From positions 3,275 through 67,274 of the forward strand of contig PXUB01000025.1 in the NCBI GenBank assembly GCA_003009755.1: 64,000 nt of DNA, in the 5' to 3' direction. Below, piece by piece: positions 3,884-43,052 of this stretch. Source of the DNA: Thermoplasmatales archaeon SW_10_69_26 (lineage in GTDB: Archaea; Thermoplasmatota; SW-10-69-26). The notes below the pieces were generated by a model. That model made no database searches. It saw only the letters and a program-made list of their open reading frames with translations, and had not been told where the DNA came from. The number at the start of each line of letters is the position of its first letter. The stretch's first letter is position 1. The translations under genes and the position numbers were made by a program.

Positions 3884-5221
3884 GTGGACGATCGCTTCGA
3901 CGACGTGAGCTTCGGGTCCTCCGGGATCCGTGGCCCCTACGGCGAGCACGTCGATCCGACGTTGGCGCTGGCCCTCGGTCAGGCCACCGCCACCCTGGCC
4001 GACGACGTCATCGTGGGCCGGGACCCCCGGACGACGAGCTCGTCCCTCGAGCAAGCCTTCGTCGCCGGCGCGACGGCCGGCGGCGCCCGCGTGCGGTCCC
4101 TCGGCGTCGCTGCGACCCCGCTGGTCGGGTACGGGGCTCGCGAGGCCGACGTGGGCGTGATCGTGACCGCCAGCCACAACCCGGCGGCCGACAACGGCTT
4201 CAAGTTCTTCTCCGAGGACGGGTCGGCCATCGACGACAGCCGCCGCAAGCGCCTGCTATCGGCGCTGCGGGGGCTGCCCGAGCTCCCCAGCTGGGAGGAG
4301 GCCACCGAGGTCTCGCAGGCGCCCGGCGTGGTCGACGGCTACAAACGGGCGATCATCGACGAGGTCGGACCCCTGTCCGGGGACCCGCGCATCGTGGTCG
4401 ATCCCGGGCACGGCGCGGCCTCGCACCTGTCGCCTCAGCTGTTGCGGGACGCGGGCGCCCGCCCGCTAACCGTGAACGCGACCCCGGACGGGACGTTCCC
4501 GGGTCGGCCCAGCGAGCCGCGGCCCGAGCACCTCGAGCACCTCAGCGCCGTGACCGAGGCCACGGACGCGATCGCCGGCATCGCCCACGACGGCGACGCC
4601 GACCGGCTGGTGGCCGTCGACGAGAACGGCCGCATGCTTCAGGGCGATCACGTGATCGTGCTCCTGGCTCGCTCGCTGCGCGCTGACGCGATCGCGGTCC
4701 CGATCGATACCAGCCGCCTCGTCTGGGAAGCCCTCGAGGACGTGGACATCGAGGTCACGCCCGTCGGGGACACCTACATCAGCGAGCGCGTCGAACGGAC
4801 CCACGGGGACTTCGGCGGCGAGGCCAGCGGCGCCATGATCTTCCCCGGCGTCTCCCTGACGCCGGATGGCCCCCACGCGGCCGTCCGGTTGGCGCAGATC
4901 GCCGACCGCCACGACGGCCTGGCCGACCTCGTGGACGAGATGCCCTCCTATGCCACGGTGCGCGAGAGCCTGGACTGCCCCGAGACGGCCAAGCAGCCGG
5001 CGATGGCGCAGATCCAGGACGAGCTGGAGGCCGTGGGCGACACGACGAGCCTCGACGGCGTGCGCGTGGACACCGACGACGGCTGGGCCCTCGTCCGCCC
5101 CTCGGGCACCGAGCCCAAGCTGCGGATCACCGCCGAGGCCGACACCGACACCGAGGCCCGCGGCGTGTTCAACCTCGTCGAGGGCATCGCCCGCCAATCC
5201 GTGGCGGAGGTCGCTCGATGA
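3884..5221 (+). CDS. glmM: Phosphoglucosamine mutase / phosphohexomutase
   Basis: Motifs FGSSGIRG, VTASHNP, HDGDADR and RPSGTEP; overlaps glmU. Confidence 0.9.
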   Translation: MDDRFDDVSFGSSGIRGPYGEHVDPTLALALGQATATLADDVIVGRDPRTTSSSLEQAFVAGATAGGARVRSLGVAATPLVGYGAREADVGVIVTASHNPAADNGFKFFSEDGSAIDDSRRKRLLSALRGLPELPSWEEATEVSQAPGVVDGYKRAIIDEVGPLSGDPRIVVDPGHGAASHLSPQLLRDAGARPLTVNATPDGTFPGRPSEPRPEHLEHLSAVTEATDAIAGIAHDGDADRLVAVDENGRMLQGDHVIVLLARSLRADAIAVPIDTSRLVWEALEDVDIEVTPVGDTYISERVERTHGDFGGEASGAMIFPGVSLTPDGPHAAVRLAQIADRHDGLADLVDEMPSYATVRESLDCPETAKQPAMAQIQDELEAVGDTTSLDGVRVDTDDGWALVRPSGTEPKLRITAEADTDTEARGVFNLVEGIARQSVAEVAR

Positions 5222-30743: not shown

Positions 30744-30831
30744 GAACGTTGCGATGGTGGCGGACGGCGTCGCTGCTGCGAGGGGCGGGGACGATGGACA
30801 GATTCAACTCCGACGCTCGTCTTGGGCCCTC

Positions 30832-32169
30832 GTGGCGTCTCGGCAGATCGGACTGCTCGTCCTCGTCGGCCTCCTGCTCGTTCCCGCCGTCACCGCCCAG
30901 GCCACCGGTTCGCCGGTGTACGTCGCGGACGTCGAGGGGACCGTCACACGGGGGACGGCGCTGCAGATCGAGGACGCGCTCGAGCAGGCCGAGGAAGCCG
31001 ACGCGCCGCTGGTGATCCGGCTGGATACGCCCGGCGGGCTCGTCGAGTCCACGCTGGAGATCGACCGCGCGATCGCCCGCAGCGATGTCCCGGTGCTCAC
31101 CTACGTCCGCGAGGGCGGCTGGGCGCAATCGGCGGGCACGTTCATCTTCCTGATGGGCCACCCCAACGGGATGGGGCAGGGGACCCAGATCGGGAGCGCC
31201 CAACCGATCGTGCAATCGCAAAGCGGCGGCACGCAGAACGCCTCCGAGAAGGTCACCAACGCGCTGGTCGAACGCATTCGCACGATCGCCGACCGCCACG
31301 ATCGCGACCCCGACGTCGCCCAGCAGTTCATCACCCGCAACCTGAACCTCAACGCCAGCGAGGCGCAGCGCCGGGGCATGAGCAACCACACCGTCGGCGA
31401 CCTCCGCGGGTTCCTCGAGGCGGTCGACGGCCGGCAGGCCAACGTCGGCGAGGCCACCGTCGAGCTCGACACGGCCGACGCCGAGATCCGTTACGTCGAG
31501 GAGGGGCTTTTGGTCCAGGTCGTGGAGATCGTCGGCAACCCGCAGGTCGCCTTCGTGTTGTTCCTGATCGGTCTCTACGGCGTCATCTTCGGCTTGGCCG
31601 CCCCCGGAACCCTGGTCCCGGAGACGATCGGGGCCCTGGCCCTGGTGATGGGCCTGATCGGGCTGGGGTTGTTCGACGCCGGCACCAGCGGGTTGCTGTT
31701 GATCCTGCTGGCCTCGGCCTTCTTCGTCGCCGAGGTCCTCACGCCCACGCATGGCGTGTTAGCGACAGCTGGGGCGATCGCGCTCGTGCTGGGAGCGATC
31801 TTCCTGCTGGACGAGCCCCTGCTGTCGCGGGACTACCTGCAACGCTTCCAGATCGTGGCCGTGATCTCGGCGATCGTCTCCGGCGGCGTCGCCTTGGGCG
31901 GTGTGGCCTTGGCGGTGCGGACCCGCGGCCAACCGACGCGCGACGAGGTGGAGGGCCGGGAGGCCGAGACGCTGACCCGGCTGGACCCGGAGGGTCAGGT
32001 TGCCTTCCGCGGCGAACGCTGGGGTGCCGTGACCGAGCACGGGCCGATCCCGCAGGATCGAACGGTCGTCATCGAGGCTCGCGAGGGCCTCACGCTGACA
32101 GTACGGGAACCGGACCCGCCCGCCGAGCAGACCGGGCGCGGCGACGACCTCGCCGCCGAGGACGACTAG
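30832..32169 (+). CDS. nfeD: NfeD membrane-bound ClpP-class serine protease
   Basis: LDTPGG, AQSAG, GSAQP, SEKVTN, TM region and C-terminal OB fold (GERWGA). Confidence 0.92.
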   Translation: MASRQIGLLVLVGLLLVPAVTAQATGSPVYVADVEGTVTRGTALQIEDALEQAEEADAPLVIRLDTPGGLVESTLEIDRAIARSDVPVLTYVREGGWAQSAGTFIFLMGHPNGMGQGTQIGSAQPIVQSQSGGTQNASEKVTNALVERIRTIADRHDRDPDVAQQFITRNLNLNASEAQRRGMSNHTVGDLRGFLEAVDGRQANVGEATVELDTADAEIRYVEEGLLVQVVEIVGNPQVAFVLFLIGLYGVIFGLAAPGTLVPETIGALALVMGLIGLGLFDAGTSGLLLILLASAFFVAEVLTPTHGVLATAGAIALVLGAIFLLDEPLLSRDYLQRFQIVAVISAIVSGGVALGGVALAVRTRGQPTRDEVEGREAETLTRLDPEGQVAFRGERWGAVTEHGPIPQDRTVVIEAREGLTLTVREPDPPAEQTGRGDDLAAEDD

Positions 32170-32171
32170 CC

Positions 32172-32519
32172 TCACTTCACGTACGTGAAGCAGGTCCAGC
32201 CGTCCGAGGACTCGACATCGAGAAGGCGGTTCTCCATCAACACGTCGTCGTTGGCTTGCCGCCAGGCGTCGGCCTCGTCCGAGGGCACGCAGTCTTGCAC
32301 CTCGTCACCCGGGTCCTTGTCGTCGTGGTCGTCCTCCGCGTAGGCGGCTTGGGAACCGGCGTCGGTGCCACCTCCGCCGGCCCACGTCACGGCGCCCGCC
32401 ACCGCCACGGTCAGCACACCCAAGCCCACGAGCGCGATCCCGAACTTCGTCGTGATCTCCTTGACGTTCGGATCGTTCAGGAGGACGTAGCGTTGCATGA
32501 TCTCCTCGATGTCGACCAA
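32172..32519 (-). CDS. Small exported or membrane hypothetical protein
   Basis: One hydrophobic segment then an acidic domain with two Cys; start uncertain. Confidence 0.55.
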   Translation of the reverse strand: MVDIEEIMQRYVLLNDPNVKEITTKFGIALVGLGVLTVAVAGAVTWAGGGGTDAGSQAAYAEDDHDDKDPGDEVQDCVPSDEADAWRQANDDVLMENRLLDVESSDGWTCFTYVK

Positions 32520-32640
32520 ACCGATCCCTCACCCCCGCCTCGCCAGGTCCCGCGGTTAAACGTGGGGGCCAGGACACCCGACCGAGGCCGCGAGACCGCG
32601 GGGCGCCAAGCCTTTTCAGCGGGACCCGTGATAGGGGACC

Positions 32641-33561
32641 ATGGGGTTGAGCGCGCTTCTCATCTCGCAAGGGACGTGGACCTTCGCCGCCATCGTCATC
32701 GGGTTCGTCGCCCTGCTCTTCGTCGCCTCGGCGATCAAGATCGTCAAGGAGTACGAGCGGGGCGTGATCTTCCGGCTGGGTCGGCTGATCGGAGCCAAGG
32801 GTCCCGGCCTGTTCTTCATCATCCCGATCTTGGACAAGATGGTCAAGGTCGACCTCCGCGTGATCACGCACGACGTGCCGATCCAGGAGGTCATGACCGT
32901 CGACAACGTCCCGGTCTCGGTGAACGCGGTCGTCTACTACCGCGTCATGGAGCCCGAGGACGCCACCGTCGAGGTCGAGGACTACCGGATGGCGACGAGC
33001 CAGATCGCGCAGACCACGCTGCGCAGCGTCGTCGGCAAATCCCAGCTCGACGAGTTGCTCGCCGAGCGCGAGAAGATCAACGAGGAGCTGCAGGAGGTCA
33101 TCGACGACGCCACCGACCCGTGGGGCATCAAGGTCTCCGCCGTCGAGATCAAGGACGTCGAGCTCCCGCAGGACATGCGTCGCGCCATGGCCGCCCAAGC
33201 CGAGGCCGAGCGCGAGCGCCGCGCCCGCGTGATCTCCGCCGAGGGCGAACAGCAGGCCGCCGAGCGGCTCAAGGAGGCCTCGCAGACGATGGCCGAGGGC
33301 AAGGGTTCGCTGTACCTGCGCACGCTGCAGACGATCCAGGAGACCGCCAGCGAGCAGGGCACCAACACGGTGATCCCGCTCCCGATCGAGTTCCTGAAGG
33401 CGCTGAACCCCAACGACGGCGGCAGCCTGCCGCTGATGGGGTCCGGTGGGGGCGACGACGACGGGGAAGACGATGACGGGGGAACCGAGCCCCTCGAGGA
33501 CATCGTTGACGACGACACCGGCGCCGAGGAGCTCGTCGAAGAGGAGAACGCGGGGACCTGA
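32641..33561 (+). CDS. Stomatin/SPFH (slipin) family protein
   Basis: EYERGVIFRLGR, QTTLRSV, WGIKV and AEAERERRA. Confidence 0.95.
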   Translation: MGLSALLISQGTWTFAAIVIGFVALLFVASAIKIVKEYERGVIFRLGRLIGAKGPGLFFIIPILDKMVKVDLRVITHDVPIQEVMTVDNVPVSVNAVVYYRVMEPEDATVEVEDYRMATSQIAQTTLRSVVGKSQLDELLAEREKINEELQEVIDDATDPWGIKVSAVEIKDVELPQDMRRAMAAQAEAERERRARVISAEGEQQAAERLKEASQTMAEGKGSLYLRTLQTIQETASEQGTNTVIPLPIEFLKALNPNDGGSLPLMGSGGGDDDGEDDDGGTEPLEDIVDDDTGAEELVEEENAGT

Positions 33562-33635
33562 CCCCGCTCACGATAGCATCGGCCGAGGACGCGTGGGCGC
33601 CCCCGGCCTCGGGCGGCCACCGTCCCGGTCGACGG

Positions 33636-33859
33636 TCAGGGACCGAAGGGTCCGGGGGCATTGGGCCCCTGGTCCTCCGTCGGGGCGATCAGATCCAGCT
33701 GGTCGGGGTTGAAGGCGCGGTCGCCTCCCTCCCCCACAGCTCGACCAGCACGCGGTTGTCCCGGTCGAAGTCGAGCACGAGACCCTGCTCGTCCCACAGG
33801 GTCTCGTCGACCTCCGGGTTCGGGCGCACGCGGACGGCATCTCCGACGCTGAGACGCAC
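33636..33859 (-). CDS. Small SH3/KOW-like protein with apparent 1-nt deletion in a G run
   Basis: VRLSVGDAVRV...GLVLDFD...VLVELWG; adding one G at 33731-33735 continues as EGGDRAFNPDQLDLI. Confidence 0.5.
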
Positions 33860-33961
33860 GTGTATCTCACCCACAGATGTCTTGCATGGCCAACCCTGAT
33901 GAAGGCTCGCTGGCCCGTCACATCGACGACGTTCAGATGCGGGTCCGTTTGTGGGCCGTTC

Positions 33962-35161
33962 TCAGGCGCTTTCGCCGCCCATGCGGGCGTCCGCGTGGGC
34001 GAGCGCGACGTCCGCGGCCTGATACAGCAGGTGCAGATCGGGCTCGGGTCGGGCGCGGGCGTAGTCGGCGAACTCGCCGCGCAGCGCCAACAGGTCCGCG
34101 TGGCCCTCCTCGACCGTGTCGGGATCGGCCCCAGGGCCCAGGTGGCGAGCGATCGTGGCCCGCAGGCGTTCGATCTTGACGGCGGCGAAGCCAGGCGGCA
34201 TCGGGTTGTCGACGAGCGGCACGAGCTCGGGCTCGCCGCCCTCGCCGGGGGGGCCCTGGAAGCCGCCGGCTTCGAGGCCGCGGATCGCGTTCTCGAGGTG
34301 GGCGAGCTCGGGCGCCTCGTGGAGGGGCGTGGCCAGCGGTTCGCCGCAGGCGGCCACACCTTCGACGTCGAAGAGGCCGCGGCCGTCGCCGCGGAGGCCG
34401 TCGAGGAACCGGCGGGGCAGCGCCTCGCCCTCCTCGGTCTCCGCTTCGCGCCAGGCCAGCCGGGAGAGGTCGCCGACGGGCAGCTCGGCACGCAGAGCCA
34501 ACGCCAGACCGGAGGGCGGCGGCGGATCGGGATCGTCGCCGGTGGGCCACAGGTAGCCGGCACCGCCACCGGCGAGCACGGTCGTCTCGGCGCGGTGCGT
34601 GGTGCACTCCTCGCCGTCGACGAGCACGGCCCCGGAGACGCCCTCCTCGGCGTCGCCGATCAAGCGCACGGCGACGGTCGTCTGGTCCACGGCGGCGCCC
34701 TCGCGCTGCAAGCGATCGAGGATCGCCTCGCGCAGGTTGCGGGCCCAGGCTTCGTCGTTGGGGACGTCCAGCTCCTCGAGCCACCGTCGGACGCGACGGG
34801 CGCGGAAGCCGAACACCTGGGCCTCCTCGGGGGCGGGAACCTCGCTGCGCTTGATGAGCTCGCGGGCCTGGGGCACCGGGTCCTCGGGGATCGGCGGGAC
34901 GTCGGGGACGTCCTGGGCGCCCTGGACGAGCAGGCGGGTGCGGGCGCCCGATCGCACGGCGGCGAGGGCGGCGGCTGCGCCGGCCAGGTCGCCACCGACG
35001 ACGAGCACGGACCGGTCGCGGGGACGGTCGGCGTCGGTCTCCTCGTCCGAGCCGAGGGTCATGCCGCCCAGCATGCCGCCGGGGCCTTCGCGGTCGCCGA
35101 CGATGGCGCCGACGGCGTCCCCAGACGAGGACGGCGACGGGTGTTGATCGGGGTCCGCCAT
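33962..35161 (-). CDS. Degenerate L-aspartate oxidase (NadB)-like protein
   Basis: Directly downstream of nadA. VLVVGGDLAG, VLAGGGAGYL, GLALALRA and EGVAACGE echo NadB/SdhA motifs; QFHPT is absent. Confidence 0.65.
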   Translation of the reverse strand: MADPDQHPSPSSSGDAVGAIVGDREGPGGMLGGMTLGSDEETDADRPRDRSVLVVGGDLAGAAAALAAVRSGARTRLLVQGAQDVPDVPPIPEDPVPQARELIKRSEVPAPEEAQVFGFRARRVRRWLEELDVPNDEAWARNLREAILDRLQREGAAVDQTTVAVRLIGDAEEGVSGAVLVDGEECTTHRAETTVLAGGGAGYLWPTGDDPDPPPPSGLALALRAELPVGDLSRLAWREAETEEGEALPRRFLDGLRGDGRGLFDVEGVAACGEPLATPLHEAPELAHLENAIRGLEAGGFQGPPGEGGEPELVPLVDNPMPPGFAAVKIERLRATIARHLGPGADPDTVEEGHADLLALRGEFADYARARPEPDLHLLYQAADVALAHADARMGGESA

Positions 35162-35165
35162 GCGA

Positions 35166-36293
35166 TCACGACCCGATCTCGAGCATGCGGTCCAGCGCGA
35201 CGCGGGACCACTCGCGGTCCTCCTCGTCGACGCGGACGCGGTTGATCACGTTGCCCTTGACCAGCTCCTCGAGCACCCAGGTCACGTAGTTGGGGTCGAT
35301 CTGGCGCATCGCGTTGCAATCCAGGCAGGCGTCGCCGCACAGCTGGATGACCTGCTTGGCCTCGGGCGTGTTGCGCTGCAGGTGCTCGATGAGGTGCTTC
35401 TCGGTGCCGATCGCGATCGTGGTGTCATCCTCGGCCTCGTGCACGAAGTCGATGATCTGGCCCGTCGAACCGGCGAAGTCGGCGGCGTCGACGACCTCGC
35501 GCGGGCACTCGGGGTGGACGATGATCTCGCCGTCCGGGTAGCGCTCGCGCATGCCGGCCACGTGCTCGAGGGAGAACCGGTCGTGGACCTGGCACATGCC
35601 ATCCCACAGGATGAAGCGGGCGTCCTCGACGGCCTCCCGAGAGGTGCCGCCGAACTCGGGGTGCCAGGGGTTCCACTTCACCCAGTCCTCGTCGCGGAAG
35701 CCCAGGTCGTAGGCGGTGTTGTGGCCGAGGTGCTTGTCCGGCATGAACAGGATCTTGCGCCCGGAGTCCAGCGCCCACTCGAAGATCTCGTCGGCGCTCG
35801 AGCTCGTGCAGATCGCCCCGTCCATCCGGCCGGTGAAGGCCTTGAGGTCGGCGTAGCTGTTCATGTAGGTGACGGGCACGATCTCGTCGGGGTCGAGCAC
35901 CTGGGTGAGGTCGTCCCAGGCTTGGCGAACCTGCACCATCTCGGCCATGCCGGCCATCGGGCAGGCGGCCTCGCGGCTCGGGATGATGACGTTGCGTTCG
36001 CCGCCGGTAAGGATGTCGGCCGTCTCGGCCATGAACGTGACGCCGCAGAAGACGATGTTCTCGACCTCGGCGTCACGGGCGCGCTTGGAGAGGGAGAAGG
36101 AATCACCCGTGAAGTCCGCCAGCTCGTAGATCTCCTCGTGCTGGTAGTTGTGCCCCAAGATGAGGGTCGAGTCGCCCAGGCAATCGCGGGCGCGCTCGAT
36201 GCGCTCGGCTCGTTCCCCCGGGCCCAGATCCCGGTAGGGTTCCGGTAGCTGGGCGAAGTGGGCGTACCGGAACAGGTTCAGCGTCTCGGCCAT
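35166..36293 (-). CDS. nadA: Quinolinate synthase
   Basis: ILGHNYQ, GDS, FCGVTFMAE, CPMA, YMNS, CTSS, CQVH, HPEC and CNAM. Confidence 0.95.
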   Translation of the reverse strand: MAETLNLFRYAHFAQLPEPYRDLGPGERAERIERARDCLGDSTLILGHNYQHEEIYELADFTGDSFSLSKRARDAEVENIVFCGVTFMAETADILTGGERNVIIPSREAACPMAGMAEMVQVRQAWDDLTQVLDPDEIVPVTYMNSYADLKAFTGRMDGAICTSSSADEIFEWALDSGRKILFMPDKHLGHNTAYDLGFRDEDWVKWNPWHPEFGGTSREAVEDARFILWDGMCQVHDRFSLEHVAGMRERYPDGEIIVHPECPREVVDAADFAGSTGQIIDFVHEAEDDTTIAIGTEKHLIEHLQRNTPEAKQVIQLCGDACLDCNAMRQIDPNYVTWVLEELVKGNVINRVRVDEEDREWSRVALDRMLEIGS

Positions 36294-36480
36294 CGCATGG
36301 AGCCAGCCGACCGGAGCCTAAAGGCGTTGGGTTGGGGGAAATCCGTTCGCCCTCGGGAGCGCTGGCTCGAAGAATTTTCGCTCGCGCCCGCGACCACGAA
36401 GCTGCCTGCGGTGGCAAGCTTCCCCACCCCGAGCGAACATCTATAACGTCTGTTGCCTTGCCCTATACGAGGCGGTCGAC

Positions 36481-37083
36481 ATGACTGACTACACGCTGGA
36501 CGAGCTTCCCTACGACTACGACGCGCTGGAGCCCCACATCAGCGAGCAGGTGCTCAAGTGGCACCACGACCGACACCACCAGGGCTACGTTGACGGGTGG
36601 AACAGCGCCGAGGAGACGCTCGAGGAGAACCGCGAGTCCGGCGACTTCTCTTCGAGCGGGTCCGCCCTCCGCAACGTGACCCACAACGGGTGCGGTCACA
36701 TCCTGCACGCGCTGTTCTGGCACAACATGAGCCCCACCGGCGGCGACGAGCCCACCGGCGCGATCGCCGACCGCATCGAGGCGGACTTCGGCAGCTACGA
36801 GGCCTGGGAAGGTGAGTTCCGCGCCGCAGCCAGCGAGGCCTCCGGCTGGGCGCTCCTCGTCTACGACAGCTTCTCCAACCAGCTCCGCAACGTGGTCGTC
36901 GACAAGCACGACCAAGGCGCGCTCTGGGGCTCGCACCCGATCCTCGCCTTGGACGTGTGGGAGCACTCCTACTACCACGACTACGGCCCCGACCGCGGCG
37001 ACTTCGTCGACGCGTTCTTCAACGTCGTCGACTGGGAGGAGCCCCGCTCGCGGTACAAGCAGGCCGTCTCCCTGTTCGAGTAA
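36481..37083 (+). CDS. sod: Fe/Mn superoxide dismutase (haloarchaeal-like)
   Basis: LPYDYDALEPHISEQ, WHHDRHHQGYV and DVWEHSYY. Confidence 0.95.
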   Translation: MTDYTLDELPYDYDALEPHISEQVLKWHHDRHHQGYVDGWNSAEETLEENRESGDFSSSGSALRNVTHNGCGHILHALFWHNMSPTGGDEPTGAIADRIEADFGSYEAWEGEFRAAASEASGWALLVYDSFSNQLRNVVVDKHDQGALWGSHPILALDVWEHSYYHDYGPDRGDFVDAFFNVVDWEEPRSRYKQAVSLFE

Positions 37084-37100
37084 GCGCATCCCGCGCTCTT

Positions 37101-37144
37101 GGCCTCCCCGCGAGGAGAGGCCCGCTTTCCTCTTCTTCTCTTCC
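37101..37144 (+). terminator. Hairpin plus C/T tract after sod
   Basis: GGCCTC...GAGGCC followed by CTTTCCTCTTCTTCTCTTCC. Confidence 0.55.
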
Positions 37145-37170
37145 GCCCGCCAGCGACGCCGCCACCCAGC

Positions 37171-38193
37171 TTAGCCGCGCTCGCCGGCGTTGAGCCCGGC
37201 GCGCTCGGCGACGTCGTACACCTCGGTGCGGGCATCGCGCAGCGAGGCGCGCTTGACGACGTAGCCCAGCTCGGTCAGCTTGCCGAGGCTCGATCGCACG
37301 GTGCGGGACGTGAGCCCGGACTGGCGAGCGATCTCGGAGGGCGTCATCGGGCCCTCGTACTCCAACAGCTTGTAGATGAACCGGGCCGAGGGCGGGGCAT
37401 CGGCCAGCTCGCTGCCGATCTCGCGTTTCAGCCGGACGCGGCCGAGCAGGTGGCCGTGCTCGCGCTCGGACAACCGCACCAGCGTCAGCCGGCGGCCGGT
37501 GCCCTTGATCGTGACGTCCTCGTCGATCGAGACCCGGCGGTGACCGTCGACGACGAGCTCGACGCCGGAGCCGCTCTCGGGGTTGGCCAGCGTGATCATG
37601 GAGGCGCTGGGCGACACGATCGGGGGATGGTCCTCCTCGCTGCAGACGGGCACGACGGTCAACACGTCGGCGGCGGACAGGACCGCGGGTCCGCCGGCAG
37701 ACAACGCGTAGGCGGTCGACCCGGTCGGGGTGCACACGATCGTGCCGTCGCCGCGGTCGTGCCACAGCAGCTCGCCGTCGACCTTGACGTCGACGTCGAG
37801 GAACGTGCCGTTCTGCTGGGGCAACACGGCGGCCTCGTTGAGCGCCAGCCAGCGCTCGTCGCCGACCTCGCACTCCATGCGCAGCGTCTGCGTGCGCCCC
37901 GATCGACCCTCGGCCAGGGCTCGGGCGACCTCCTCGGCCTCGCCGGCCTGGGCCTCGGCGAGCACGCCCAGGCCCTCGTTGGACAAGAGCAGGACCGGCG
38001 GCGGGTCGGGCAGCTCGGCCAACCGCGACAGGAAGAATCGGGTCTCGCCGACGAGCGTCAGCACGTCGGTCTCGGCGTCGACGGCATCGGTGACGGTCAG
38101 CTCGTGCTCGGCGAACGCCTCCCGCACCTGGCCGCCGTCCTCGCGGGCTCGCTCGTGGGCCTCGACCGCGACGCGCACGTTCCCCGGGCACAT
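37171..38193 (-). CDS. NAD-kinase-fold protein fused to a C-terminal wHTH
   Basis: LALNE and GDGTIVCTPTGSTAYALSAGGP; C-terminal PPSARFIYKLLEYEGPMTPSEI...RTVRSSL...RDAR. N-terminal GGDG is replaced by VGETR. Confidence 0.85.
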   Translation of the reverse strand: MCPGNVRVAVEAHERAREDGGQVREAFAEHELTVTDAVDAETDVLTLVGETRFFLSRLAELPDPPPVLLLSNEGLGVLAEAQAGEAEEVARALAEGRSGRTQTLRMECEVGDERWLALNEAAVLPQQNGTFLDVDVKVDGELLWHDRGDGTIVCTPTGSTAYALSAGGPAVLSAADVLTVVPVCSEEDHPPIVSPSASMITLANPESGSGVELVVDGHRRVSIDEDVTIKGTGRRLTLVRLSEREHGHLLGRVRLKREIGSELADAPPSARFIYKLLEYEGPMTPSEIARQSGLTSRTVRSSLGKLTELGYVVKRASLRDARTEVYDVAERAGLNAGERG

Positions 38194-38259
38194 CGTCGGC
38201 CCCCTTGAGGCCTGCGCCCGCGGGCGAACGGTCAAGCCGCCGAAGCCGCGTGAGCCCAC

Positions 38260-39114
38260 ATGGTCGGACGTTGGAAGCTGCTCGGCTGGGCCGGAGCCGG
38301 CCTGCTGACGTTGGTCGTGCTAGCGCCCGCCGGGATGCTGTGGATGCTGTTGCATCCGCCCCAGGCCGGCGGCACGACGACGCCGGTCGAGCTGGGGCTG
38401 GCGGCCGAGCATCGGCGGTTGACGACCGAGGACGGTGTCGAGCTGGATGCCTGGGTCGTCGAGGCCGCCAACGAGACCGACTCGGCGATCGTGGTCGCCC
38501 ACGGCTACCCGGCCAGCAAGGCCGACGTGCTGCCGGCGGTGGCCTTCCTTGCAGGAGACCATCACCTCGTGCTGGTCGACCACCGCGGGTTGGGTGACAG
38601 CGAGGGCTCGACGACGCTGGGCATCGAGGAACCGTTGGACGTGCAGGCCGGCATCGAGGCGGCGCGCGCGATCGCGGGCGTCGACCGCGTCGGGTTGCTC
38701 GGGTTCTCGATGGGTGGCGCCGCGGCGATCCAGGCGGCCGACGACGCCGACGTGGACGCGCTCGTGGCGCAAGCCGCCTACGCGGACCTGGGCGATCTTG
38801 CGGCCGGTAGCTTCGAGGGCCTGGGCCCGCTGGCCCACCCGATGGGTGCCCTGATGCTGTTCTACGGCGAGCTGGCCGGCCTCGACCCCGACCGCGCCCG
38901 CCCCGTGGAGGACATCGGGGACGTCGAGGCGCCGATCTTGTTGATCCACGGCAGCGAGGACGAGACGATCGACGCCGACCACGGCCGTCGGCTGGCCGAG
39001 GCCGCCCCCGAGGCCGAGCTGTGGATCGTCGACGGCGGCACGCACGGCGCCGCCGCGTTGAACCCCGGGTGGGGGGACCGCGTGGGCGCGTTCTTCGACG
39101 ACGCGCTCGAGTGA
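38260..39114 (+). CDS. Membrane-anchored alpha/beta hydrolase
   Basis: N-terminal TM, HGY, GFSMG, HGSEDE and catalytic His (GGTHG). Confidence 0.9.
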   Translation: MVGRWKLLGWAGAGLLTLVVLAPAGMLWMLLHPPQAGGTTTPVELGLAAEHRRLTTEDGVELDAWVVEAANETDSAIVVAHGYPASKADVLPAVAFLAGDHHLVLVDHRGLGDSEGSTTLGIEEPLDVQAGIEAARAIAGVDRVGLLGFSMGGAAAIQAADDADVDALVAQAAYADLGDLAAGSFEGLGPLAHPMGALMLFYGELAGLDPDRARPVEDIGDVEAPILLIHGSEDETIDADHGRRLAEAAPEAELWIVDGGTHGAAALNPGWGDRVGAFFDDALE

Positions 39115-41408: not shown

Positions 41409-41960
41409 ATGCAGCCCGAGGATGAACTGCGAGCCGACCACATGGCGATCCGGCGAGGCGCAAAGGTGCTCGAACACCTGGCCCACCACCTCCGCGAGGG
41501 CCACGGCGTCCGCAACACGGACATGTTCACGCTCGTCGACCTGCTCGACCGCGCCGCCGGCGAGGACCACCACGGCAAGGAGGAGCAGATCCTGTTCGCG
41601 TTCCTGCGCGAGAGGCGCACGCGGTTCGGGTTCGACGGGCTGCGCAGCTTCCACGAGGACCACGACGAGCTGGGGGATCTGCTGGCCGACCTCCGCGAGC
41701 TCGTCGGCCCAGCCTGCGAGGGGGACCAGCGGGCCCGGCAACGGTTGGACAAGATGGCCACCCGCTACCGTGAGGCGACCCGCGATCACTTGCGCCGGGA
41801 GGAGCAGACGTTCCTCGACCGGCTGCACGAGAACCTGAGCACCGACGAGATCCAGGATCTCGCCGACCGGTTGGCCGCCTTCGACGGGGCGCCGAAGGCG
41901 CGGGACCGCCTCGAGGATCGATCGGATCGGCTCGCGAACGGCTACGAGGACGCCTTCTGA
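41409..41960 (+). CDS. Hemerythrin-domain protein
   Basis: ADH, HHGKEEQILF, EDH and HLRREE. Confidence 0.85.
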   Translation: MQPEDELRADHMAIRRGAKVLEHLAHHLREGHGVRNTDMFTLVDLLDRAAGEDHHGKEEQILFAFLRERRTRFGFDGLRSFHEDHDELGDLLADLRELVGPACEGDQRARQRLDKMATRYREATRDHLRREEQTFLDRLHENLSTDEIQDLADRLAAFDGAPKARDRLEDRSDRLANGYEDAF

Positions 41961-41961
41961 G

Positions 41962-42675
41962 TCACTCCCGGAACAGCAGTTGCGTGTGCCCGACGCCGAT
42001 CACGTCCCCGTGCGACAGCCCTCGGCGCTCGCCCAGGCCCAGCCGGTCGCCGTTCAGGGAGACCCGAGCCCGCGCCGAGCGGAGATCCAGCAGCGTGTAG
42101 GTGTCGTCCTGGATCTCGATCTCGGCCGCCTGGTCGTCGACGAACCGGCTCTCGGGGAGGGGGACGTCGGCCTTGGGCTGGCTGCCGAGGATCCAGCCGC
42201 GGCGGCGGTCGGCCTCGAGCGTGCCCAGGCGGAACCGGCGGCCGACCTCGAGGCCGTGGACGACGACGAGGTGGGGTCCGGGCCCGGTCGGTTCCGGCTC
42301 CCACTCGATCGGCGAGGGATCGGGATCCTCGGGGTGGACGGACGGGTTGCCGTGGGCGGACAGCTCGCGCAAGGCCTCGGCCAGCGCCCACAGGGGTGCC
42401 TGGTCGATCCGGTAGGCGTTCTTCACGCGGCCGCCCTCGCGGACGCGCTGGGCGCGCACGATGCCGGCCTCCTGCAGCTGGTTGAGGTGGTAGCGCACCC
42501 CCTGACGGGTGAGACAGCGGGTGCGGTTCCCGTTGCGGCCGTCGTGGTCGACCGGCGTGAGCTCGATCTCGTCCAGCGTGCAGGCGTCCTGGAGCTGGGA
42601 CAGAAGGCTCAGACGGTTCGCGAACGCGAGCGCTTCGAGGCTCTCCAGGATCCAGTCGGTGGCTTCCTCCCCCAT
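41962..42675 (-). CDS. ArsR-like wHTH + FHA-fold protein
   Basis: LEALAFANRLSLL...QGVRYHLNQLQEAGIV; C-terminal LLDLRS...SLNGDRL...LSHGDVIGVG. Confidence 0.85.
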   Translation of the reverse strand: MGEEATDWILESLEALAFANRLSLLSQLQDACTLDEIELTPVDHDGRNGNRTRCLTRQGVRYHLNQLQEAGIVRAQRVREGGRVKNAYRIDQAPLWALAEALRELSAHGNPSVHPEDPDPSPIEWEPEPTGPGPHLVVVHGLEVGRRFRLGTLEADRRRGWILGSQPKADVPLPESRFVDDQAAEIEIQDDTYTLLDLRSARARVSLNGDRLGLGERRGLSHGDVIGVGHTQLLFRE

Positions 42676-43052
42676 GGCGCAGGACGAGGCCCGTGACGAG
42701 GTTTGAACGCTCGCGCGAAGATCTTCGATCACCGATGGATGTCCTACCGCAGGAGGAACCGGGGGCTGCAGCCGGTCCCCAGCTCCGTCGGGATCAGAGG
42801 CCTGGTAGTGCAACGGTTGGCTTGACACGTGGACGTTTGCCGGTGACAAACGAGGGCCAGCGAACCCAACCGCCCCACCGGGCGCGGGCAAGGTCGGCTG
42901 AGTGGTGTCGGCTGGGCGCCGTGCAGGGGAACGAGCACCTGCTCGAAGGAAGCAACGATTTGGACTGAAACGCCCATTCTTGGCCGCTTGCGCGGCTCTT
43001 TCCCCAAATGTTCATCCCTCTCGAAGGCCCTGGTTGCGGTGGTTGCGTTCCG

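Follow-up and report, generated by a model that had tools for sequence, protein, structure and literature searches.

NrtR is a bacterial transcription factor whose gene is reported to adjoin NAD genes in 42 of 62 cases (PMC2330246). The window analyzed here, a stretch of 64,000 nucleotides from a salt-loving archaeon, encodes a fusion protein that resembles NrtR in three ways: an N-terminal NAD-pathway-enzyme domain with a perturbed catalytic signature, which some members keep, is joined to a C-terminal winged helix (wHTH); the gene usually lies by NAD genes; and palindromic operators, or operator-like sites in our case, are found at NAD biosynthesis promoters. The two differ in the effector domain, which has a NAD kinase fold in the fusion and is a Nudix domain in NrtR, in their setting, the fusion being archaeal with a TATA/BRE promoter as its target, and in the ligand, which is ADP-ribose for NrtR and presumably NAD(P) for the fusion. 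The fusion is an NrtR analogue, not a member of that family, and has no sequence relationship to it. With NAD kinase (NadK/PpnK, EC 2.7.1.23), it shares the fold, the NE/D motif, and conserved region II, but it lacks GGDG, N71, H186, and R190, adds approximately 95 aa of linker plus wHTH, and scores far below every NCBIfam NAD kinase cutoff. The fusion of a kinase-type domain from the pathway of the regulated cofactor to a DNA-binding domain controlling that pathway also recalls NadR, a catalytically active enzyme-regulator, and the archaeal RbkR, reportedly a catalytically active bifunctional riboflavin kinase/regulator, whereas the catalytic motif of the fusion subfamily is degenerate.

Another product of the locus, here called mini-NadB, shares with NadB (SdhA/FrdA flavoprotein family) a Rossmann-type FAD-domain core and a C-terminal three-helix domain, and its gene lies right after nadA, like nadB in the relative G012. 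Compared with a full-length NadB and with E. coli NadB, however, it has lost the capping domain and approximately 120 FAD-domain residues. Deletions have also removed H244, R290, and H351, three of the four NadB residues checked; the fourth, R386, is either substituted or missing, and the protein comprises 250 to 350 residues (399 aa for the window ORF) versus approximately 500 for NadB.

The four genes that an earlier note had read from this region are all real, as judged from profile matches and ORFs (Table 1). NadA matched Pfam NadA with 315 bits and TIGR00550 with 304.8 bits (cutoff, 262.9), and its C111, C234, and C319/C323/C326 are invariant among 15 sequences. The mini-NadB ORF starts 4 nt past the nadA stop codon, and sod, which matched the haloarchaeal Mn-SOD model NF041312 with 377.8 bits (cutoff, 300), is divergent from nadA across a shared spacer of 187 bp. 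Immediately 3′ of mini-NadB, tblastn matches to a 61-aa ORF were found in 5/5 family loci (49 to 58% identity over 39 to 43 aa). Its codon-position G+C is coding-like and a Pfam search returned no family above the cutoff; it is probably a third operon gene in the window's family.

Table 1. Features of the nadA locus, in window coordinates
Feature	Position	Strand	Basis or sequence
61-aa ORF 3′ of mini-NadB	33689-33874	-	tblastn matches, codon-position G+C
mini-NadB (NadB-like ORF)	33962-35161	-	weak FAD_binding_2/NadB matches
nadA, quinolinate synthase, long type (375 aa)	35166-36293	-	Pfam NadA, TIGR00550
TATA-like box TTTAGG	36317-36322	-	read from sequence
operator-like O2	36337-36349	-	CGAACGGATTTCC, weaker O1 copy beside BRE/TATA region
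operator-like O1	36368-36380	-	CGAAA-ATT-CTTCG, 5-3-5 palindrome
sod, Mn-type superoxide dismutase, haloarchaeal type	36481-37083	+	NF041312
NadK-fold + C-terminal winged-helix fusion (340 aa)	37171-38193	-	Pfam NAD_kinase_C, HTH_24, MarR_2

The NAD kinase-like fusion protein

Pfam recognizes NAD_kinase_C (78.4 bits) in the fusion, together with HTH_24 and MarR_2, both exceeding their cutoffs. In the AF2 model (pLDDT 90.4), the NadK fold spans residues 1 to 245 and the wHTH residues 266 to 330, and the best Foldseek matches are NAD kinases (TMt 0.75 to 0.82). The start codon is likely the ATG at 38193, since homologues begin there and the 66-nt extension to a GTG at 38259 has a non-coding-like codon-position G+C.

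GGDGT is replaced by GETRF in the window fusion, which retains NE, DG, and TPTGSTAY. Counting sequences that have a residue at that alignment position, GGDGT was present in 41/41 canonical NadKs versus 0/77 fusions. N71, H186, and R190, invariant in canonical NadKs, are also gone from the fusions, among which N119, E120, D149, G150, and T157 to Y162 are invariant. In the NAD kinase of M. tuberculosis, Asp85 of GGDG is reported to be essential, the motifs retained by the fusion and most of their residues are reported to be vital, and NAD kinases are described as building the NAD site at the dimer interface (PMC8553519). By analogy, this site likely lies at the dimer interface in the fusion too.

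The fusion is unlikely to be a bifunctional protein that, like NadR or RbkR, combines NAD kinase activity with DNA binding. Its NadK fold is complete, with the NE motif and region II intact, an acidic residue survives in the degenerate motif, adjacent to what was the first GGDG glycine (G[DE]xxF), and GGDG is retained at the motif position in 6/117 family members, pointing to a probably active ancestor; RbkR, as described, would be an archaeal precedent. However, none of the aligned fusions carries GGDG, the three further NadK residues are lost with it, the top-scoring NCBIfam NAD kinase model reaches 88.6 bits (cutoff, 326), and the genome already holds two GGDG-bearing NadK homologues, on contigs C3 and C30. 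Judging from these motifs, the fusion is likely a sensor rather than a kinase, and it probably senses NAD and switches nadA.

Mini-NadB and its predicted contact with NadA

Family models match mini-NadB only weakly: the best NCBIfam L-aspartate oxidase model gave 36.4 bits against a cutoff of 639, and TIGR00551 gave 27.8 bits against 452.75. Its AF2 model has a pLDDT of 91.1 and a pTM of 0.90, and the best Foldseek matches are SdhA, FrdA, and NadB (TMq of approximately 0.7). More than 100 columns are invariant in an alignment of 19 sequences. Besides the regions named above, the FAD domain of mini-NadB lacks the S-T-x-Y-A-Q-G-G segment. Since the NadB active site is lost, mini-NadB is a pseudoenzyme.

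The genome was also searched for canonical nadB, nadX, and nadK, which the earlier note had listed as worth looking for. Besides the two NadK homologues, this search found nadX and nadC on contig C15 and no canonical nadB in the genome. NadX is present in every genome with mini-NadB; in the sole genome that keeps a full-length NadB (G012, nadB directly after nadA), NadX was not found. This distribution argues against mini-NadB still being a flavoenzyme that forms iminoaspartate or catalyzes another redox reaction from a reduced active site, possibly one that NadA completes at their interface. Although the short forms still carry GxGxxG, an acidic residue where strand 2 ends, and the ATGG and GLYAAG-like FAD motifs, the G010 short form matches Pfam FAD_binding_2 with 40 bits, and mini-NadB is always encoded right behind nadA, all four checked residues, the capping domain, and the S-T-x-Y-A-Q-G-G segment are gone. 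The window family's form, with GG[DTSC]LAG and then Q/S/H, retains neither the middle glycine nor the acidic residue. We consider a surviving flavoenzyme improbable.

Prediction of a NadA-mini-NadB complex gave a median score of 0.83, compared with 0.00 for the best of three controls; this mark was reached by 58/80 solved complexes and 2/110 mismatched pairs, a calibration that holds only roughly for alignments as shallow as those used (15 and 25 rows). The three runs shared at least 78% of contacts, with partner pLDDT of at least 87. In the model, the C-terminal helical domain of mini-NadB sits on the cysteine loops of NadA: the interface includes 9 of the 13 invariant residues of this domain and, on the NadA side, the loops around C111, C234, and C326. 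No PDB entry was common to the NadA matches and the NadB matches, which makes it unlikely that the score reproduces a known complex structure. Going by this model, mini-NadB probably still clamps onto NadA.

Operator-like sites and gene neighborhood

The nadA-sod spacer (36294-36480), singled out by the earlier note as the presumed target of the fusion, holds the conserved operator-like pair O1/O2. The TATA-like box lies approximately 25 nt upstream of the nadA ATG, leaving a short leader or none, and a block, AACCCAACGC, followed by TTTA/ATATA is conserved across the 6 family loci; from its sequence, TTTAGG would act as the promoter. In the window's class, O1 is located 54 bp upstream of this box, where archaeal activators also typically bind, and the sign of regulation is thus uncertain. 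The window's O1 is the sole pattern match in the window and the sole strict match in the 2.8-Mb genome. Palindromes of the O1 type were found in 12/17 nadA upstream regions by strict scan and in 2 more by eye (14/17), against a background of 87 matches in 2.82 Mb, or a chance of 0.008 per 260 bp; the genomes compared are related, and these locus counts are not fully independent. O2 lies 31 bp downstream of O1 with a motif score of 9/10. Over the 14 loci, the mean motif score peaks at 7.29 at offset +31, compared with approximately 4.3 elsewhere, and every locus reaches at least 7 at +30 to +32, these being weak sites (7 to 10 of 10 loosely defined positions) scored with a motif defined from the same loci.

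The fusion is present in 14/21 class genomes (G000 included), and in 10 of these 14 it is found within 1.2 kb upstream of nadA in the same orientation; G010 has the order nadC-fusion-nadA-miniNadB. It is unlinked to nadA in G006, G011, and G019, and in G012 the contig is too short to judge. The NadB-like gene directly follows nadA at 12/12 relatives' loci. Conservation in relatives, which the earlier note had proposed to test, thus holds for fusion-nadA and nadA-NadB-like and fails for sod, to which no match was found at the relatives' loci. We also observed that tgtA, which has no evident NAD link, forms a conserved neighborhood with the fusion and nadA.

The palindromes might belong to another transcription factor, with the fusion sitting beside nadA through inherited gene order and no regulatory link. 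In favor of this reading, tgtA shares the neighborhood despite having no evident NAD link, and G013 (88% complete) has the palindrome with no fusion found. Nevertheless, site and fusion co-occur in two classes: in f24, a family from a different class, 5/5 genomes have a palindrome before one nadA copy, 12 to 15 nt upstream of its TATA box, although the fusion gene is not adjacent to nadA. The other f24 nadA copy has the palindrome in 0/4 loci (200 nt upstream read). Both family genomes without the fusion have a degraded or missing site (a 5-nt instead of a 3-nt spacer in G001, no site in the nadA upstream region of G004), no site with an A/T-rich spacer was found at 3 nadA loci of f4, whose genomes lack the fusion, and in G012 the fusion gene has a perfect palindrome at its own promoter, 4 nt from the TATA box. 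Another factor is quite unlikely in light of these observations. The reading of the fusion as a nucleotide-sensing nadA regulator, already put forward in the earlier note, is upheld by gene order, the operator-like pair, the unlinked f24 sites, and the loss of GGDG with NAD motifs kept. A palindrome scan of the genome found no further regulon members, and a one-operon regulator is plausible.

The same note had made sod part of the module, with the fusion co-regulating nadA and sod and SOD kept beside nadA to protect its cluster. The NadA iron-sulfur cluster is indeed oxygen labile, and O1 lies in the shared spacer about equidistant from the nadA TATA-like box and a TATA-like CTATAA upstream of sod, so incidental co-regulation is possible in this genome. 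As a conserved system, however, this arrangement is contradicted by the relatives: no SOD match was found at their 12 nadA loci or 13 fusion loci, the window sod is a second, haloarchaeal-type copy next to a family-wide one on C15, its sole orthologue (G001, 83%) is on a different contig from the G001 nadA, and other, unrelated genes are inserted in the same slot in G008 and G016. We regard a nadA-sod module as very improbable; the position of sod between the fusion gene and the nadA promoter is a chance, lineage-specific insertion in this genome only. Least credible of all is that the NadB-like ORF, despite its weak family scores and shortened length, is a decaying pseudogene: the "degenerate" gene of the earlier note did lose its active site, but its ORF has no stops or frameshifts in 6/6 family genomes (5/5 others), its dN/dS (0.12 to 0.45, versus 0.16 to 0.34 for NadA) and confidently predicted fold are not those of decay, and two further families carry shorter orthologues, while a library of 1.84 billion proteins yielded approximately 13 short representatives.

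Proposed mechanism

We favor, with moderate confidence, a model in which the fusion is a NAD(P)-sensing regulator of nadA, mini-NadB is a non-catalytic NadA-binding subunit, and sod stands outside the unit. The conserved unit would be the fusion gene, then O1, O2, and the promoter, followed by nadA, mini-NadB, and possibly the 61-aa ORF. The fusion would be a transcription factor reporting the NAD(P) level, given that the phosphoryl-transfer motif is lost and the NAD pocket kept. Because the NAD site of NAD kinases forms at a dimer interface, we propose binding as a dimer of dimers to O1 and O2, which, 31 bp or approximately three helical turns apart, would present the same DNA face. With O2 beside the BRE/TATA region, the most likely action would be repression of nadA-miniNadB when nucleotide is bound, both the sign and the ligand being presumptive.

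Iminoaspartate would come from NadX, encoded elsewhere beside nadC. Mini-NadB may then be a NadB whose capping domain and substrate residues were lost once NadX made the oxidase dispensable. Selection would have preserved its Rossmann core and especially the C-terminal three-helix domain, which the complex model places on the NadA surface formed by the loops with the conserved cysteines. Bound to NadA as a non-catalytic subunit, mini-NadB might protect the oxygen-labile cluster, control access to it, or serve as a docking adaptor through which iminoaspartate is delivered.

Gene order around nadA and the fusion gene

The window corresponds to positions 3275-67274 of contig C25 in an assembly of 2.8 Mb (95% complete); the G+C content is approximately 70%. 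Those homologues that are named belong to Thermoplasmatota MAGs, and the public runs that contain this DNA, among which no RNA dataset is listed, are labelled as halite metagenomes. Profile matches confirmed the positions assigned in the earlier note to nadA, a NadB-like open reading frame (ORF) without the capping domain (mini-NadB), sod, and a gene encoding a 340-residue fusion of a NAD kinase (NadK) fold with a C-terminal winged helix-turn-helix (wHTH) domain. An Rfam search over positions 33500-38400, with E values up to 0.1, gave no match.

Features of the nadA region, in window coordinates
Feature	Position	Strand	Evidence or remark
nadA	35166-36293	-	Pfam, 315 bits; TIGR00550, 304.8 bits (cut-off 262.9)
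mini-NadB gene	33962-35161	-	Weak NadB and FAD_binding_2 matches; TIGR00551, 27.8 bits, below the curated cut-off (452.75); start 4 nt past the nadA stop
sod	36481-37083	+	NF041312, 377.8 bits (cut-off 300); both Pfam domains present
Fusion gene	37171-38193	-	NAD_kinase_C, 78.4 bits; wHTH families
61-aa ORF	33689-33874	-	Directly 3' of the mini-NadB gene in 5/5 family loci; without family match above cut-off
NfeD-Band7 (SPFH) gene pair	30754-33561		Flanks the operon
Alpha/beta hydrolase gene	38260-39114		Between tgtA and the fusion gene
Hemerythrin-domain protein gene	41409-41960	+	Adjoins the next, convergent gene
FHA-domain protein gene	41962-42891	-	FHA domain; weak HTH_20 match
Palindrome O1	36368-36380		CGAAA-ATT-CTTCG
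Palindrome O2	36337-36349		Weaker copy downstream of O1
Inverted repeat	36398-36422		GAAGCTTGCC ... GGCAGCTTC; nadA-sod spacer, between O1 and sod

The rest of the genome was searched for the canonical genes that the earlier note had named. A canonical nadB was not found, and the only TIGR00551 matches other than mini-NadB were two adjacent stretches of a single 629-aa open frame on contig C4, whose length and partial score suggest an SdhA-like protein. The aspartate dehydrogenase gene nadX is present on contig C15, approximately 1 kb from nadC, and NadX therefore supplies iminoaspartate. Two more NadK homologues with a GGDG motif are encoded on contigs C3 (adjoining an inositol-monophosphatase-family ORF) and C30, and NADP synthesis is therefore independent of the fusion. 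A 91-bp unit, repeated four times in tandem, separates nadX from a membrane-protein gene (C15:15824-16199, i.e., positions 4825-5200 of locus L047); each copy combines an AT-rich box, GAGGAAAT, with a G-run/C-run inverted repeat. The copies could represent a repeated promoter/regulatory element or a small mobile repeat.

Among relatives, the NadB-like gene follows nadA in 12 of 12 loci, and in the genomes of the window's own family (n = 5) the order continues with the 61-aa ORF and the Band7 gene, which keeps its position throughout. The fusion is present in 14 of the 21 genomes sampled from the class, and in 10 of these 14 (G000, the window's genome, together with G002, G003, G005, G010, G008, G014, G016, G018, and G020) nadA lies on the same strand, at most approximately 1.2 kb downstream. 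The linkage is absent in G006, G011, and G019, and the contig from G012 is just 2 kb long. In G010, the order is nadC, fusion gene, nadA, and mini-NadB gene, with nadX 5 kb away. The fusion was found in 19 of 301 genomes sampled across the phylum, namely the 14 of the window's class and all five of f24, a family of a second class in which it is not adjacent to nadA.

Two types of nadA were noticed in the phylum when loci L071, L073, L074, and L072-L083 were compared with the window. NadB or mini-NadB follows the long type (375 aa); the short type, which stands beside nadX in family f4, is only about 40% identical over part of its length. The long nadA and the nadB behind it may have arrived together. 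At the other end of the locus, tgtA lies approximately 0.5 to 1 kb from the fusion gene in G002, G016, and G019, where no hydrolase match was seen; the alpha/beta hydrolase gene would then have been inserted locally in the window's genome, as a second case of this kind.

The membership of sod in the module was not sustained. No SOD match was found in the relatives' nadA and fusion loci, and the slot between the fusion gene and nadA, which holds sod in the window, is occupied by a membrane ORF in G008 and by an epimerase-like gene in G016. The genome also encodes two SODs, the haloarchaeal-type window copy and a copy at C15:39070-39657, which are 49% identical; the C15 copy is the one found across the window's family, and the window copy is common to G001 only. 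This sole orthologue (83%) lies on contig C1 of G001, the nadA of which is on C48. This distribution suggests that the window's sod may have been acquired by gene transfer from haloarchaea of the same halite. Among four halite-metagenome runs, nadA, sod, and the fusion gene were bridged only by a contig of the possible source run, the contigs of the others being too short for the sod junction. We conclude that sod is an accidental neighbour.

Palindromic sites upstream of nadA

Comparison of the 260-nt upstream regions printed for 17 nadA genes brought out a 13-bp palindrome with 5-3-5 spacing (O1 in the window), which reads GGCAA-ATC-TTGCC, with variants, in family f2. A defined scan located it in 12 of the 17 regions, and genus g4 contributes two more regions, with TGAAAT(T/C)(T/C)CTTCC in that position. 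The exceptions are G012, in which nadA directly follows nadC with no promoter between them; G001, in which the same arms flank a 5-nt spacer; and G004, where the site is missing. Within the family, G001 and G004 are also the two genomes that yielded no fusion. The relaxed motif has 87 matches in the 2.82-Mb genome, corresponding to 0.008 per 260 bp; the nominal binomial probability of 4e-22 for the palindrome is an overstatement, since the genomes are related, although its flanks are not conserved between families. Within the window alone, the O1 pattern is not significant (1 match vs 0.19 expected; 18 of 100 shuffles gave at least one match).

A weaker second copy, O2 in the window, follows 30 to 32 bp downstream of the first site in 14 of 14 loci, over which the mean motif score is highest at +31 (7.29 out of 10 vs approximately 4.3 at other offsets). 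In the window, O2 adjoins a conserved AACCCAACGC-TTTAGG block, approximately 25 nt upstream of the nadA ATG, which is read from its sequence as a BRE/TATA element. Sites of this kind also occur where the fusion is unlinked: in f24, one of the two nadA copies bears a GGCAG-ATT-CTGCC-type palindrome 12 to 15 nt upstream of the TATA box in all five genomes, and the upstream regions of the second copy, read by eye, have none in four loci. The fusion gene of G012 carries a perfect GGCAAAATTTGCC at a distance of 4 nt from its own TATA box. No such palindrome was found at three f4 nadA loci, which come from genomes without the fusion.

Over the whole window genome, the strict motif of the window's family (f1) matches once, at nadA, and none of the five closest-looking of the 87 relaxed matches that were inspected is at an NAD gene. 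The best of them, a perfect palindrome TGAAGATTCTTCA (C17:9605-9617), precedes a gene for an Lrp/AsnC-like regulator by 36 bp; it is similar to O1 but probably serves that regulator itself. No more sites were found at NAD genes in this genome or in five f2 genomes. AT-rich boxes in the nadC-nadX spacer have other spacing and were rejected as sites. The pattern GGCAANNNTTGCC was likewise rejected in the five f2 genomes, where match counts were near those of the reversed-pattern control; only its copies with A/T-rich spacers stand at nadA, and G008 lacks a strict match. As for the inverted repeat in the nadA-sod spacer, it might be a site for another sod regulator.

The earlier note had the NadK-wHTH protein controlling both nadA and sod. 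Synteny and the conserved sites support the former, and the latter does not hold as a conserved feature. We read the conserved system as a putative wHTH regulator, derived from NadK, that would act through two operators on nadA and mini-NadB, and for which we infer both the ligand and the sign of regulation.

A NadK fold joined to a winged helix

The AF2 model of the fusion (pLDDT, 90.4) comprises a NadK fold (residues 1 to 245), a low-confidence linker, and a winged helix (residues 266 to 330) made of three helices and a two-strand wing. Consistently, the C-terminal part scores above the gathering thresholds of HTH_24 (29.4 bits vs 21.9) and MarR_2 (28.7 vs 27). The two-domain NadK fold is present, the best 50 Foldseek matches being all NAD(H) kinases or structural-genomics homologues (E of approximately 1e-22). 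According to a review, NAD kinases are defined by GGDG, NE/D, and region II; Asp85, Asn159, Glu160, Thr200, and Tyr202 are vital in the Mycobacterium tuberculosis enzyme; and the NAD site forms at the dimer interface (PMC8553519). We aligned 77 fusions with 42 canonical NadKs, 41 of which have residues at the GGDG position. GGDGT is found there in all 41, and GGDG in none of the 77 fusions, which all read G[DE][NTS][AR]F (GETRF in the window protein). Also lost from the fusions are N71, H186, and R190, invariant in the canonical NadKs. NE, DG, and TPTGSTAYxLSAGGP are retained, with N119, E120, D149, G150, P156-T160, and Y162 invariant in all 77. The best NCBIfam NAD kinase equivalog, NF002984, reaches 88.6 bits, below its cut-off of 326.

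A profile search also recovered full-length fusions that are more remote but share the C-terminal signature, among them proteins named Parvarchaeota or Diapherotrites, and the ESM Atlas lists NadK_C + HTH_24 clusters labelled Nitrososphaerota and Thermoproteota. GGDG occupies the motif position in 6 of 117 fusion-type proteins. Taken together, these findings suggest that the ancestor was active and that catalysis was lost repeatedly, as is reported for NrtR (PMC2330246). The family would derive from a bifunctional kinase-regulator through repeated GGDG loss, and the fusion, whose oligomeric state is presumed, would bind as a dimer of dimers to two operators three helical turns apart.

The NadK-wHTH family would be the archaeal counterpart of NrtR, NadR, and NiaR. 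With NrtR, as described in the same paper (PMC2330246), it shares a degenerate enzyme-like domain joined to a wHTH, linkage to NAD genes, and a palindromic operator; the effector domain has a Nudix fold in NrtR and a NadK fold in the fusion, so that the likeness is one of working, not of membership. Neither a dedicated regulator of archaeal NAD synthesis nor a NadK-type regulator is described in the openly accessible literature searched.

mini-NadB and its predicted contact with NadA

A word search returned just 21 mini-NadB clusters (57-99% identity). From a library of 1.84 billion representatives, 15 matches were better than 1e-30, of which 12 were short (180-349 aa) and the others full-length NadBs; a thirteenth short form, the full-length P0155 (282 aa), matched at 2e-30. 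The 13 comprise two of the window family's form (one partial, 280 aa) and 11 short forms of 180 to 325 aa. The ESM Atlas returned generic FAD_binding_2 clusters only. In f2 and f5, nadA is followed by a gene for a 250- to 265-aa form. Truncated NadB is not described in the openly accessible literature searched.

The AF2 model of mini-NadB (pLDDT, 91.1; pTM, 0.90) matches SdhA, FrdA, and NadB. Deletions were mapped by aligning seven mini forms to the full-length NadB of G012, itself aligned to Escherichia coli NadB (1CHU, residues 10 to 516). Relative to G012 NadB, about 120 residues are deleted from the FAD domain, and the whole capping domain, including H244 and R290 (E. coli numbering), is deleted in all seven. 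Of the dicarboxylate site, H351 falls in gap columns, and R386, the residue altered in PDB entry 1KNP according to its title, is lost: its HGANR segment reads HEAPE in the window family's form and is missing from the short ones. The dinucleotide-binding segment is GGDLAG in the window form, with Q at the end of strand 2, and GxGxxG (GASATG in one) in the short forms of other families, with D at that position. The C-terminal three-helix domain (helices at 292-362 in the model) is kept and aligns to the C terminus of G012 NadB. More than 100 columns are invariant among 19 mini-NadB sequences, and dN/dS is 0.12-0.45 over six genomes, like that of NadA (0.16-0.34), both being rough values given the extreme G+C of third codon positions. 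The gene described in the earlier note as degenerate has thus lost four NadB active-site residues but is under purifying selection rather than in decay. NadX is encoded in every genome with a mini form and was not found in G012, the sole genome with full-length NadB (89% complete).

C111, C234, and C326 are invariant in 15 NadA sequences. In alignment, the first two correspond to the CPMA and CxVH cysteines in Thermotoga maritima NadA, which are ligands of the [4Fe-4S] cluster. The complex of NadA with mini-NadB was predicted from custom alignments of 15 and 25 rows, respectively, which makes the calibration rough; its median score was 0.83 (best of three controls, 0.00). Among solved complexes, 58 of 80 attain that mark, as do 2 of 110 mismatched pairs. 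The runs share at least 78% of their contacts, and the partner pLDDT is at least 87. This prediction supports binding of mini-NadB to NadA without demonstrating it. On the mini-NadB side, the predicted interface lies in the C-terminal helical domain (282-299, 321-337, and 351-358 in 366-aa numbering) and takes in 9 of that domain's 13 invariant residues; on the NadA side, it consists of the loops around C111, C234, and C326 (106-112, 231-239, and 322-331). The NadA and NadB match lists had no PDB entry in common, and no NadA-NadB complex is among the PDB entries listed for either protein.

The mini-NadB protein is a putative non-catalytic partner of NadA, for which we infer the physical contact and its purpose. 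The C-terminal helical domain would be a NadA-binding module, placed over the cysteine-loop face of NadA. Once NadX had taken over catalysis, this module would have been retained as a pseudoenzyme subunit stabilising or gating the oxygen-sensitive NadA. Our joint proposal, which is tentative and to which we give somewhat less than even weight, is that the NadK-wHTH proteins form an archaeal family, not described before, of transcription factors responsive to NAD(P), and that mini-NadB shows how NadB docks on NadA. It offers a concrete candidate for an archaeal NAD regulator, with predicted operators. How NadB or NadX hands unstable iminoaspartate over to NadA has long been asked, and a naturally occurring "docking-only" NadB, its interface predicted with confidence, points to specific residues. 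Around one oxygen-sensitive enzyme, genes would have been recycled, with enzymes reused as a non-catalytic sensor (the fusion) and a non-catalytic subunit (mini-NadB).
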